Shown here piece after piece: positions 15,001-24,000 of a stretch of DNA of 64,000 nt. The stretch lies in NCBI GenBank assembly GCA_000165345.1, contig CM000434.1, forward strand, positions 512,001 to 576,000. The letters run 5' to 3'. How positions within the stretch are numbered: the stretch's first letter is position 1; every line of letters starts with the position of its first letter. The position numbers are program-made.

Positions 15001-18000
15001 GAGCAGGCTCGAGACTACTAAACACAGCAAATATTATTCAGATTATCGTGGTTGCACTTAGAGTTACACAATTTTCGTTTACATACAGCTATTTCAATCA
15101 GAAATGGTATGGAAAATTTAGCCAAACAAAGGGCGACTGGTGTTTGTACAATTTTGGAATTGTTTGTGAGGCAGTTAGCTTAATAATGTACGGTATTAGC
15201 TTCTTTTATGTAGAGTCATATGCGGACGTTGGAGTTGGTGAGCAGTATGCTTATTGGATGTTAACTTTATTTACATTGGCTGGAATCTCTGAACTAATGA
15301 TGCTTTTCACAGGTTTTGGTAGCTTCTTTATCCTTTTCTTTGCAGCCGCTCTTATTGTCACATGTACTTGGGCATTTCAATTTGAACCCCTTCTAGAATC
15401 AAACTCACCTTTGCTATTTTCAAGAGATATCAATGCAGACGTTTTACCAAAGGAAACTCCACTAGATGATATGAGCATTGAAAAGAATCAAACTGTCAAC
15501 AATTATCAGCCAAATTTTACTTATCAACTTTATGCAGGCGCATCTGGAGTTTCTAGTGTTCCAAATCCGTATGGGGTTGAAATGCAACAATAAATGAAGA
15601 TTTGGGCGCATAATTAAATAATTATTAATATGTTACATATCTCGATTTATTTTAATAAGACAAGAATATTGGAATTTATTAGAGTAACATAGACTGTAAG
15701 GAAATTAGACACAAATTTAAAAGGAAGCTTGCCGAACAACTTTAATATGAAACTATAGTTTGGCTCCATTTTGAATCTTCTAGTTTTAATCATTCTTAAT
15801 AATAGGATACGAAATAATTTTTCCCATTTTGCTTTCACTCTAGGGTCTAAAATTGTATATACATGTTAGGGCTAACACCTTTTCCCGCCATTTATTAATA
15901 GTAAATTTATACAATAGCTATTTTTAATAAGATGGACTCTACAATAGCAAATCCGAATATTTCACTTAGTAATGATATTAATTATAAAAGATTTGACCCT
16001 GGATATTCTGACATAGAAAATATTGAATTATTAAAAGAGGCAATTAGGGTTGGACTACCTTCTCATTATGATTTTGAAATAATTAAAACAATTAAAAAAA
16101 TTAATGAAATAAAATCTATCTCAGATGAGCGTGAAAACTTTACCGTGTATTTACAAATGCCGGAAGGGTTGTTAGTTTTTTCTCAATCTATTTCTCTTAT
16201 TTTACAACACTTTGCCCGAACGAGTGTAGTAATTTTGGGGGATATAACATATGGAGGATGCTGCATAGAAGATCAATTAATGAGCATATTAGAATCTTCA
16301 CATTCAAAATCATCAAACCAGTCTTTACTGGTGCATTATGCTCATTCATGTTTAATTCCATTTGAAGAATTAGCTATGTCTAAAGACATTAATATTGCAA
16401 ACATTCTTTATATCTTCGTTGAAATTAATTTGTTATCGGATCATTTTATTCAAACTATCAAGCATAATTTTAAAAAAGAAGATAAGATTGCACTATTATC
16501 AACTATTCAATATCATAGCACAATTGTTGGTTCTCAGAAGTGCTTGAATGATTATTTTTTAAACCCAGTAAAAATTCCGGTTTGTGACCCATTGGCATGG
16601 GGCGAAACCCTCGGATGTACCAGCGCAATTATTGATGGCGATGTAGAAAAGTGCATTTTTCTTTCGGATGGTAGATTTCATCTTGAAAGCGCTATGATAC
16701 AAAATCCAAGTAAAGTATTTTATTTATATGAGCCTTTTTCAAAAAAAATTACAAGAGAAACTTATAGTCATCAGCTTTTACATGAAATAAGAAAAAGTTC
16801 AATAGTAAATTCGTTCAAAATAGTTCAAGCGGGCGGAAGTAATTTAATTAATGACTCTGTAGTGATTGGAATATTCTTCAGTACATTAGGCCGTCAAGGG
16901 AGTTTTGCAATAGTTGAAAGACTGGAAAAACTTATAAATAAATATAATACGAACACAAATAATAAAACAAAAATTGTCGCTTGCACTATTTTTGCTTCAG
17001 ATTTATCTGCAGAATGTATAAATGATAATATTTTAGAAGGGGTCGACTATTCAATACAGCTTGCATGCCCCAGGCTTTCTACTGACTGGGGAGCCTATTA
17101 TAAAAAGCCGATTCTAAATTCATATGAGGCATTTGTATTATTGGGAAATCTTTCTAATAATAACTTCCAGTTTTTTTGTGATATGGAAAATAATTTAGAT
17201 TTATCAAACTCCGAATTTTCATACCTCCAAACTTACCCAATGAATTATTGGGCATCAAATGGTAATATTTGGTGTAACTATTATTCAGATGAATCTAGAA
17301 ACGGAAGTTTTGGAGCATCTAAGGACCAAATTGATGAGATAAAGTACAATATTAGGCAGAACAAACTCAAGAACTTGACTAAAAGAAAAATTAACTTGCA
17401 ATATGAAAGAAATGAGTTAGCTTAGTTTAAATTGAACAAAATTAGGCTTTAATTATATTAGCAAAATCACTTTTAGTATAATAGACTATTAATAATTTTT
17501 AATAATAATACTTTACATCTGACAAATATCGTTATAAATCACAATTTATGTAACACAAAGCCGGTACTTTGTCTTGTCGTTTGATTAAAATAATTTGATT
17601 AAAGCTATAGTAAAAAAATTTTATGGTATAACAATTCCAATCTAATCGAGCAACATTAAAGATATATTTTTGTCTGTGGGAAGTATAAAAAAAGAAGTTG
17701 ATAAATATGGTAATATGGAAGAAGTTAATATAAATCAAGTTTTACTAGAAAGAGGGATTAGTTACACTTGTACTCAAATACTTGATGCCCATGCAAAAAA
17801 ATTAAAAAATGAAATTAATACTAGATGTAGAGAATTTCAGTCTGTTGATGAGCTGATAAATTTTTCAAATTCAGATCAAAACAGAAATGATTCAAATGGC
17901 TTGCTTTCAAATTTTGATTGGAGAAGTAGTTATTTACCGCATATTTATTCTGCTACATTAGGATTGAAAAATGGCTTTATTGACCCAAAGCTGCAAGGCG

Positions 18001-21000: not shown

Positions 21001-24000
21001 TGTATTTAAAGGCATGTAAATTTGTTTCTGTTTCTCAAACAAATAATAAAGTAATTAAAATGCTTAGCACTAGCAGAAAACTTAATAAAATTACCAATGA
21101 GATATCTAGTCCACTAGATAAATTTATTTTTAATGAATGGGGGAACACTATCGAAGATTTTTTGGCAAGATATAATTTAAATAATCCTGATAGAGCTGTA
21201 TATTCCATCAATGATTTTAATAATGAAATTAACTCATTAAGGCCATTTCCTGATAATTTAGATTGGTGTGATTCTACATTTTCGTTTGTAGTTGTTCTAC
21301 CTAGTAATGAAAAAAGATCATTTCAACTTGATAAATTCGAATTCAATATTATTAACTGCTATTCAGCGGCTTACAGTTTGGCAATCGGGAATGTAAATAT
21401 TGATAAGGAGTTTTATAATAGAAAGATAAGGAAATATAATTCAAAAGTAAAGAATAACACCAATCCTACCCAATTAAAAAAACAAATTTATAAAAAACAT
21501 TTGATAAATAATAGACACGAAAGTCCTTCGGAAGAAAAGAAGGAAAATTTTTCTTTGAATAAATCTATTAATACCAAACAAAAAAACTCGAATGAAACAG
21601 GCAAATTCACAAGTTTGCCAAGCTGTCAAGTTTATTCGTACCAAGATAAAGAAACTACAGATACAAACACTTCATCTGAAGAAAGTTTACTTGGAAATAT
21701 TTGCGAATCAAAAATAGAGCCTAAGGAGCTTATTAATGAAGATTTAAAGGGAAATTCTTTCAATAAACTACCAAGTTCCGATGAAGATAAGCTTTCTATT
21801 AGAGCAAAAAGTAATAAGCGTAAAACAATAGTAAGGGCACTACCTGCTCCATCAGATCCATTGAGCAGGGCTAGAATAATTGAATATAGCAAACAAGCTG
21901 ATGAGCTGAGACCTTTTCCCCACGGCATAACTTGGTGTTACCGTTCTGCAAGGTTCAAAGTAAGATATAGGAGATCAAGTGATGGTTGTTGGACTGCAAC
22001 ATCGTTCACTCCCACTAAATTCAATTCTGTGAAAGAGGCATTTGAAAACGCAGTAGATAAATTAGCGGCTCATATTAACGATTATAAAAATAGTAATGAA
22101 ATCCCTATTATTCCGAAGAAAAGACATTTAGAAATTGAACCTTAATAAAATAAAGTTATATTAGCTAGTAATTACAATTTATTGCAAGTTTTTTTTTTCT
22201 CTAAAGAATTTGAATTCTCTTCTAAATTACTAGATCTCGGGGAATGAATGCAGAAATGGATCGGCGATACTGCCTGTATCAAGTCTATGTATTGGGTTAT
22301 TATCCCATACATTTGAGTTTTCATTCCATACATACCAATTAGGATCTCTATAATCCATTTCATTGTAAATACTTGGCTCTTCATTAAAGATGCAAATTGG
22401 TTGAATACACTTACTAGGTAGACACTCGCTCAGCTCTGATGATGGCGTCAAGAACTCTGATTTTGAGATATATTCATTATCTTGATTTGTTTCACACGTA
22501 GAAGGTTCAATAGCGTTATTTGTTTTATAATTATTGCAATTTTCTGTGAATGTAGGAGTAACAGGGTAAATCCCAACATCACTTGCAAGAAGGACACCTG
22601 GTGGGGATTGCTGGAACTCAAGGCATGCGCGTCTGAAGTTTCTAGGAGAAAACTCTATTTCTGAATTCGATGGCACAACTTCGCAAGTACTTTCAATTGT
22701 TTGAATTCTTTGCTTATATAAGTCGGGATCATTTTTAATAACATTTTCTTGTCTTTGTTCAAAGCCTTCAAAACGACTGTAGTTCTCAACCGGTTTTCTG
22801 TTTGATTTAGAGTAATGCTTATCAACTTCTAATTCACTTTGAATGAACGATACTTCATTTTCGGAATAGATTGGCTTGTTTTTTTTAAATTGATCTATTG
22901 ATTCCTTTTCATTCATGCATCTGTAGTTACTTATAGATTCTCGTCTTTTTTTAATAATGGCTTTTTTAACTCTTATTTGATTACCAACTTCGGATTCTTT
23001 TTCAGGAGGATCTTTAAAGAAATTAGTTTGCTGCAAGAAATGTGGTACAACGTGAATTAGTGGTGCATTAAGAATGGTTTCAAGCTTAGTTTTTCCTTGG
23101 TTAAGTAATCTTTGCAATTGATGGTATCTGTTTTTCACTGCATGCGTAGTTCTTCCAGGAAGATGTCTTGCAATATCTGCCCATCTGTTTCCCCAAAGAT
23201 TTTGCTGGTTTAAAATAAATCTGTCCTCAGAAAGTGACCAATCGCCTCTTCTGATTCTTGGATCAACATGCGATATCCACCTTTCTCTACATTGCTTTGC
23301 TAATCTATTTACGTTAAGTGTTGAATTAAGCAATCTAGCCGTTTCAGACCAGCTTGATGGTCCAAGCCGTTGAACTAACTGATACAACAGCTCATCCTCT
23401 TCTGCATTCCAAGGCTCTTGGGGCATTTATCTTTTTATCATGAGAAATACCATTAAAACGATATATATTCGTGAAAAAAGAATTTGTATTCTGCTTTACT
23501 ATCTATTTGTGGGGTACATGCTACCTTCACCGCAGAGTAAGTTGATATCGTTGCAACGACAATACATCTTCGGATGTCTCTTTAGCTATAATTGGTACTG
23601 GATATAGTTGCGCTATTTAACTTGATGTCTGGAGTATTAATTAAATTATAAATTGGCGGTAAATGTGGGAATAGTTGCCATTTTTTTGTAAAGAAACAGC
23701 AACATTCTGTAGAAAAACAAAAAACTACCGCCTTAAATTTGCTTTTTTTTTTTTTTGATCTGTTACCATGTAATTATACTTCATAAATTTACCATTTTAA
23801 TATAAAGTATGGCGGCAATTATGTTGGCGCAGAATATTCAGATTGCAAATCGTGACATTTTCTAAAGATGAGCGAAGTAAATAAAAAGAAGAACAAGACA
23901 AATACTAGATACAATGATGAACAGGAAATTAAAAATCTCAAGAATAGAATTGTTATAGAGCTCCCATGTAGAGGAAAATCTTGGAATAATCCTAATCTCT

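Follow-up and report, generated by a model that had tools for sequence, protein, structure and literature searches.

Does the gene at 17715..22145 on the forward strand of a 64,000-nucleotide stretch of contig CM000434.1 (positions 512,001 to 576,000, GenBank assembly GCA_000165345.1; about 32% G+C; hereafter the window) encode an apicomplexan AP2 (ApiAP2) transcription factor with added chromatin-reading modules, as an earlier note on this DNA had proposed, or a different kind of protein? On sequence comparison, the product of this Cryptosporidium parvum gene is a member of the apicomplexan/chromerid SET10-AP2VIIa-7 family. The PHD, Tudor and AP2 modules of the earlier note are real, but a divergent SET domain at residues 67-350 had been overlooked, and because of it the protein is not just a set of readers joined to AP2 domains. 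The reading favoured here, with moderate confidence, is that this Cryptosporidium family member is a nuclear chromatin regulator joining writer-like, reader and nucleic-acid-binding modules. Its domain order is SET(-like), PHD, Cys/His segment, Tudor, a genus-specific middle domain and three very divergent AP2 domains with the motif P[FY]PxG[IV]xW.

The open reading frame (17670..22145, forward strand) is present as described, and it amounts to 1491 amino acids when counted from a TTG; that length conflicts with the start quoted alongside it, 17715, which is the first in-frame ATG and gives a product of 1476 amino acids. This product is identical to EAK89876.1/XP_627582.1 of C. parvum Iowa II, whose database name is 'protein with N-terminal apicomplexan-specific globular domain plus PHD domain', and every orthologue starts with MEEV. 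Since 11 further Cryptosporidium clusters hold full-length orthologues, at identities from 92% down to 37%, 17715..22145 is taken on comparative grounds to encode a real, conserved gene. The gene is probably cgd6_2240, to judge from the tag of the C. meleagridis orthologue (cmbei_6002240) and from the adjacent Myb gene. Its features are as follows.

17715..22145, forward strand: complete single-exon coding sequence, 1476 amino acids plus stop, equal to C. parvum XP_627582.1
17913..18764, forward strand: divergent SET(-like) domain, residues 67-350, from profile matches, split by a variable insert at residues 191-262
18939..19145, forward strand: PHD finger, residues 409-477, C4HC3 with a 32-residue insertion between the first two ligand pairs (Pfam PF00628)
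19377..19550, forward strand: Cys/His segment, residues 555-612, with invariant C570-x2-C573-x16-C590-x5-H596 (residues 570-596, 19422-19502)
19635..19829, forward strand: conserved helical or coiled segment, residues 641-705, directly before the Tudor domain
19893..20012, forward strand: Tudor domain of the PTM/DIR17 type, residues 727-766 (Pfam PF21743)
20250..20714, forward strand: middle domain, residues 846-1000, moderately conserved, in Cryptosporidium orthologues only
20811..21044, forward strand: AP2-fold module a, residues 1033-1110, with a helix, strand 1 (LQPYPTGIKW), strand 2 (WKVVY), strand 3 and a long helix
21207..21386, forward strand: AP2-fold module b, residues 1165-1224, with LRPFPDNLDW, acidic and poorly conserved
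21858..22073, forward strand: AP2-fold module c, residues 1382-1453, with LRPFPHGITWCYRSARFKVRYRR, basic, the best-conserved segment

The SET-like domain and its family

The N-terminal region is tied to SET proteins by both pairwise and profile searches. With BLASTP, residues 70-485 align with Plasmodium 'histone-lysine N-methyltransferase' proteins of the SET10 type (E 2e-44), and the same search also aligns the Cys/His segment and the Tudor domain with their order kept. A profile of residues 66-352 retrieved 69 of 1.84e9 representative proteins, among them SET10 of Plasmodium and Babesia, Theileria proteins, the T. gondii 'histone lysine methyltransferase, SET', AP2VIIa-7 of Neospora, Besnoitia and Cardiosporidium, and proteins of Selenidium, Lankesteria, Rhytidocystis, Eimeria, Cyclospora, Chromera and Vitrella. 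The search with the SET-like profile also reaches ankyrin-SET proteins (P0068/74/75/82/86) at E 2.5e-7 to 5.8e-4, and the stretches matched in them overlap their Pfam SET domains; Neospora AP2VIIa-7 itself has a weak Pfam SET match (E 0.056). In light of these connections to SET10-type and Pfam-SET proteins, which amount to remote homology with recognised SET domains, and of the core motifs EYTG, NHxxC (NHYEC) and GDELAADFG, all invariant in the orthologues, residues 67-350 are classed as a divergent SET domain.

Whether this domain is catalytic is uncertain, because no GxG motif is found in it, Phe replaces the last Tyr of ELxxDY throughout the family, PfSET10 included, and Pfam SET (PF00856) has no match on the whole protein at E<=10; all three points count against a writing function. 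A PDB profile search with the full-length alignment returned no SET match (nor an AP2 match). The same three points, together with the absence of the gene from C. parvum SET-domain surveys and the status of TgAP2VIIa-7 as a known complex subunit, would suit a protein whose SET-like domain is catalytically dead and which is purely a reader or adaptor; it might, for instance, bring in bromodomain or remodelling complexes as one of their subunits, a role that has been proposed for TgAP2VIIa-7. This alternative is rather unlikely, given that the SET-C segment (residues 283-350, 18561-18764) is the second most conserved of all segments, with 74% identity to C. muris, and that the NH, EYxG and ELxxD core is retained. 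Moreover H3K18 methylation is reported to require PfSET10, a nuclear protein with SET and PHD domains in which the same Phe is found and which associates with 14 ApiAP2 factors (PMC11580448).

In SET-C of the window protein and its relatives (P0012-P0067), the variant ADFG, with Phe after Asp, is found in all aligned members that keep the Asp, whereas most of the ankyrin-SET proteins matched by the same profile keep DYG instead. Since PfSET10 is reported active, ADFG may point to a catalytic site, or a preference for substrates, that is out of the ordinary.

The window protein has the arrangement by which the family is recognised, namely a SET-like domain followed by a collinear PHD finger and Cys/His segment, plus Tudor or AP2. 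Relatives fall into two types. Proteins of the first, SET-PHD-(Cys/His)-Tudor, end soon after the Tudor domain (Plasmodium and Babesia SET10, the Theileria proteins, the T. gondii 'SET putative' and a Vitrella protein). The second, SET-PHD-(Cys/His)-AP2, comprises AP2VIIa-7 and a Selenidium protein with three AP2 modules, as well as Chromera P0067 and a second Cryptosporidium paralogue, in which a SET-like domain and AP2 are present and no PHD was detected. Among the family members compared, Tudor and AP2 occur together only in the orthogroup of the window protein, which also has the genus-specific middle domain. In a neighbour-joining tree of SET-C, with bootstrap values of at most 66% at the deep nodes, the Cryptosporidium clade is left unplaced between SET10 and AP2VIIa-7.

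AP2VIIa-7 (TGME49_202490; Neospora P0026/P0090, Besnoitia P0025, Cardiosporidium P0044) shares the SET-like domain (profile E about 1e-63) and, after it, the PHD, Cys/His and AP2 elements, the AP2 module of the Cardiosporidium protein carrying the signature FRPFPLGIMW...GSVAKAF. It differs in length (3000-3300 amino acids, about twice that of the window protein), in that no Tudor domain was detected with Pfam or with a profile built for it, and in having one detected AP2 module per protein against three. AP2VIIa-7 is described in the literature as an AP2 factor with a methyltransferase domain, and TgAP2VIIa-7 is a subunit of a complex with the bromodomain proteins BDP1/2/5.

Plasmodium SET10 (PF3D7_1221000; P. 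fragile P0012, P. brasilianum P0013) has the SET-like, PHD, Cys/His and Tudor elements in the same order, and the ADFG variant of the SET motif. Unlike the window protein, it ends about 85 residues past the Tudor domain with no AP2 module, carries a DUF7073 of its own and long low-complexity inserts, and has a PHD loop of normal length (13 residues). The protein of the archigregarine Selenidium pygospionis (P0060, known from a transcript) resembles the window protein in its SET-C, PHD and Cys/His elements followed by three AP2 modules with the signature LQPFPPGIIW / LPYPPGVSW, but no Tudor or middle domain was detected in it and its SET match is restricted to the C-terminal part of the domain.

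The second Cryptosporidium paralogue (C. xiaoi/bovis P0059; C. hominis P0112; C. muris P0116) combines a SET-C-like region with two AP2 modules of the same subtype (LKPFPTGISW, P[FY]PxGIxW). It is shorter (about 1210 amino acids), has no detected PHD or Tudor domain and, in a further difference, its AP2 is recognised by precomputed Pfam annotation; it is probably already counted as an ApiAP2. Its genes (P0059, P0110-P0116) lie at other loci and are found genus-wide, from C. hominis to C. muris.

It is unlikely, if conceivable, that the window protein preserves the ancestral full architecture, that of a self-targeting histone methyltransferase with a SET writer, PHD and Tudor readers and an array of DNA-binding AP2 domains on a single chain, and that PfSET10 (AP2 lost) and TgAP2VIIa-7 (Tudor lost) are complementary reduced derivatives. 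Were this so, a methyl mark would be placed or kept up at particular DNA sequences through the invariant C-terminal AP2, the AP2 proteins of C. parvum would number 19, with this one so far uncatalogued, and its SET enzymes would increase by one. The reported association of PfSET10 with many ApiAP2 factors would then represent the same machine divided among separate proteins.

Three AP2 modules

The C-terminal third raises the question of whether its repeats are AP2 domains and, if so, whether they bind DNA. The earlier note had recognised two AP2-like domains, and both are present (about residues 1033-1110 and 1382-1453), but a third, at about residues 1165-1224, had been missed. By eye there are three repeats, each with L[QR]P[FY]P at its start (near residues 1050, 1175 and 1398), and hhalign relates the modules pairwise with probabilities of 63-86% (86% for b against c). 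An AlphaFold2 model of residues 1032-1236 contains two helix-strand-strand-strand-helix modules, a and b, with predicted local distance difference test (pLDDT) scores of about 85-90 (about 90 for b), and a model of residues 1368-1476 has a helix, three strands and a helix with core pLDDT of about 70-77. All three modules, and with them both of the segments first noted, are predicted to form the AP2 fold of about 60 residues, a three-stranded antiparallel sheet on a C-terminal helix, and AP2 domains are the nearest solved structures in fold searches with the predicted models. The lists from these searches also include TEM1 and AtERF1 for the C-terminal model, and TEM1 and the N-domain of Tn916 integrase for the middle-pair model.

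The link to AP2 in sequence passes through relatives that had been retrieved by means of the N-terminal domain alone. Hidden Markov models (HMMs) of the modules match Cardiosporidium AP2VIIa-7, Selenidium P0060 and the Cryptosporidium paralogue P0059 at 14-26 bits, against a maximum of 9.4 bits in 1133 shuffled or reversed control sequences, and the modules so matched have the signature P[FY]PxG[IV]xW ... GSVxxAF in common. The third Selenidium module passes Pfam AP2 (41.2 bits). A profile made from the relatives' modules only, when run against 177,635 PDB sequences, has AP2 domains as all of its top four matches; it hits 3IGM, the AP2 domain of PF14_0633 (E 3.9e-5), and AP2IX-6 (E 0.009). The circle is closed by hhalign, in which the window-only and relatives-only modules align over 58 columns (98.8%, E 5e-17) and single modules match those of the relatives at 98.2% (c), 97.8% (a) and 83% (b). 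Remote homology to AP2 is found in this way via intermediates, and it is very improbable that the modules reached a small helix-sheet-helix fold by convergence and have no relation to AP2.

Several results pull the other way. Pfam AP2 (PF00847; cut-off 33.3 bits) has no match on the whole protein at E<=10; isolated module c reaches 14.5 bits (E 0.045) in the correct register, which is below the cut-off, and isolated modules a and b have no Pfam AP2 match. PDB profile searches with the C-terminal module alone, or with all modules of the window orthogroup, found no AP2. Because no module reaches the Pfam cut-off and the orthogroup's own modules, used as a profile, retrieve no AP2 domain from the PDB, the connection in sequence is transitive only, and the label 'ApiAP2' survives as remote homology, not at the Pfam threshold. 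Confidence in the AlphaFold2 model of the C-terminal module is modest (mean pLDDT 61). In structure, the closest neighbours are AP2 proteins of the Toxoplasma mitoribosome, not transcription factors; with Foldseek, the middle-pair model has the same AP2 protein as its top match (E 7e-3, probability 0.98) and nothing at E<=0.001. Compared with the canonical ApiAP2 domain (PF14_0633, PDB 3IGM), moreover, the window modules, besides scoring no more than 14.5 bits on PF00847, carry one more helix at the N-terminus and, ahead of strand 1, the motif P[FY]P, and module b is acidic. From the predicted structures and the chain of sequence matches we conclude that all three modules are genuine, very divergent AP2 domains, an assignment of remote homology rather than a database-level family call.

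The modules differ in conservation and charge. Module c has 79% identity to C. muris, the highest of all segments (40% for the whole protein), a net charge of +4 to +9 and, in the stretch of its three predicted strands, six Arg/Lys (net charge +5) and six aromatic residues. For module a the identity is 39% and the net charge -2 to +5; for module b, 18% and -2 to -5. Module b is probably degenerate. Aligned by hand and eye, module c does not correspond to AtERF1 at the residues that contact DNA, and its specificity cannot be predicted on that basis.

The main rival to the reading favoured here is that the AP2-fold modules are not sequence-specific DNA binders and make protein-protein, RNA or non-specific chromatin contacts, targeting being left to the PHD and Tudor domains and to partners. 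The acidity of module b and the near neutrality of module a would fit such a role, as would the failure of every module to pass Pfam AP2. So would top structural neighbours that are built into the Toxoplasma mitoribosome, although the mitoribosomal role itself does not transfer, since C. parvum is not known to have a mitochondrial genome or a mitoribosome. On protein-binding microarrays, no DNA is bound by several of the AP2 domains catalogued for C. parvum (PMC4117751, PMC12246861), 5 of the 18 catalogued ApiAP2 proteins of this species are listed as not binding DNA (PMC12246861), and ApiAP2s that bind heterochromatin independently of a motif are noted in the PfSET10 paper (PMC11580448). This rival is nonetheless held to be unlikely: module c is kept across the genus, its predicted strands carry the Arg/Lys and aromatic residues typical of a nucleic-acid-binding surface, and it is the AP2 domain of PF14_0633, known in its DNA-bound form, that comes nearest in sequence to the modules of the family.

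The AP2 domain of PF14_0633 binds TGCATGCA. Its proximity in sequence to the family's modules thus also bears on the view that the protein is a conventional ApiAP2 transcription factor recognising TGCATGCA-type elements, with nearby copies in the window. This motif is, in addition, over-represented in C. parvum promoters (PMC12246861). In the 64-kb window, however, there are 0 exact copies of TGCATGCA against 1.09 expected, and matches with one mismatch number 24 against 23.5 expected. The two elements reported by the earlier note, at about 14221 and 63365, are not TGCATGCA: positions 14221 and 63367 read GGCATGCA. With no exact copy and near-matches at chance frequency, the proposed link between nearby TGCATGCA elements and the protein was rejected. 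The modules are, furthermore, far from any characterised AP2, so that specificity is not transferable to them, and the SET, PHD and Tudor domains are unlike what is found in typical ApiAP2 factors; the conventional-factor view is accordingly improbable.

Reader modules and proposed role

Between the SET-like and AP2 domains lie the putative readers. The PHD finger is real, with a Pfam match (PF00628) of 25.4 bits against a cut-off of 24 that covers residues 441-477 and profile positions 12-47 only, but it is not the canonical finger that had been described, loop 1 having 32 residues against 13 in the Plasmodium homologue. The ligands are C409-x2-C412-x32-C445-x2-C448-x4-H453-x2-C456-x17-C474-x2-C477, and all eight, plus W472, are invariant in 12 orthologues. 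Since the ligands are invariant and loop 1 nevertheless carries an insertion, the finger is zinc-compatible, as the earlier note required, without being canonical. A Phe precedes the zinc-binding His, with Ala before the Phe, like the 'RAFH' of AIRE.

The nearest solved PHD fingers are those of AIRE (PHD1, E 2e-5), BAZ2A/B, UHRF1, KDM5A/B, PHF21A and CHD4. The PHD fingers of AIRE (PHD1), BAZ2A/B, UHRF1, KDM5A/B (PHD1), PHF21A and CHD4 read the unmodified H3 tail, not H3K4me3. By analogy, reading of H3K4me0 by the window PHD is a lead.

Relatives from Plasmodium, Toxoplasma, Cardiosporidium and Selenidium have a detectable Cys/His segment too, and no Pfam family covers residues 555-612; the SET10/AP2VIIa-7 family may thus possess here a zinc-binding element that annotation lacks. 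The Tudor-like module of the earlier note is borne out, the string quoted there lying at residues 735-766, inside a match to Pfam PTM_DIR17_Tudor (PF21743; 38.3 bits, cut-off 27.2; residues 727-766) that is likewise found in C. muris and C. serpentis. This domain is present in all orthologues and in the SET10-type relatives, and has 65% identity to C. muris. By hmmsearch among the retrieved proteins only, profiles of the helical or coiled segment (residues 641-705) and of the middle domain (residues 846-1000) match nothing outside the Cryptosporidium orthologues, and hhalign finds no relation between the middle domain and the AP2 modules.

In the reading favoured here, that of a chromatin regulator with writer-like, reader and nucleic-acid-binding modules, the conserved, strongly basic module c, possibly helped by module a, would tether the protein to DNA, and the PHD and Tudor domains would read histone tails. 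The SET domain would then methylate nearby histones; alternatively, with SET inactive, the protein may scaffold a reader complex, as TgAP2VIIa-7 does with its bromodomain partners. The acidic, fast-evolving module b is probably a structural or protein-contact remnant.

SET-plus-AP2 was already known in Toxoplasma, and SET-plus-Tudor in Plasmodium; what is new is that a single Cryptosporidium protein brings all the modules together, and that it has an AP2 subtype which had stayed hidden. The gene's existing annotation is that of a PHD or 'apicomplexan-specific globular domain' protein only. Under its inferred identifier, cgd6_2240, it is not among the 10 SET candidates that Sawant et al. list for C. 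parvum (PMC9487757) and occurs nowhere in a 2025 review that counts 18 ApiAP2 and 8 SET proteins in C. parvum (PMC12246861). Its absence from the published AP2 and SET lists is explained by the failure of standard annotation to find its divergent domains. The transcription regulators of Cryptosporidium are very few, and to them this protein adds a candidate link of DNA sequence to histone methylation. PfSET10 and TgAP2VIIa-7, which have been studied separately, are now tied into one family, and a divergent AP2 subtype, P[FY]PxG[IV]xW ... GSVxxAF, is defined; because standard HMMs miss this subtype, AP2 catalogues drawn up at Pfam thresholds would be incomplete.

The surrounding locus

The intergenic spacers at the locus are short, with about 290 bp 5' of the gene studied here. 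Two of its neighbours are ordinary housekeeping genes, which encode a diphthamide-synthesis protein of the DPH1/2 type (15932-17425, forward strand; Pfam, 226 bits) and a DEAD-box helicase with an SPB4-like C-terminal extension (23868-26180, forward strand; Pfam). The convergent neighbour (22230-23426, reverse strand), whose stop lies 84 bp from that of the studied gene, encodes a protein of 398 amino acids with two Myb repeats (Pfam Myb_DNA-binding, 87 bits). By locus numbering it is probably cgd6_2250, Myb-M, which is reported as a male-fate determinant of C. parvum (PMC12246861).

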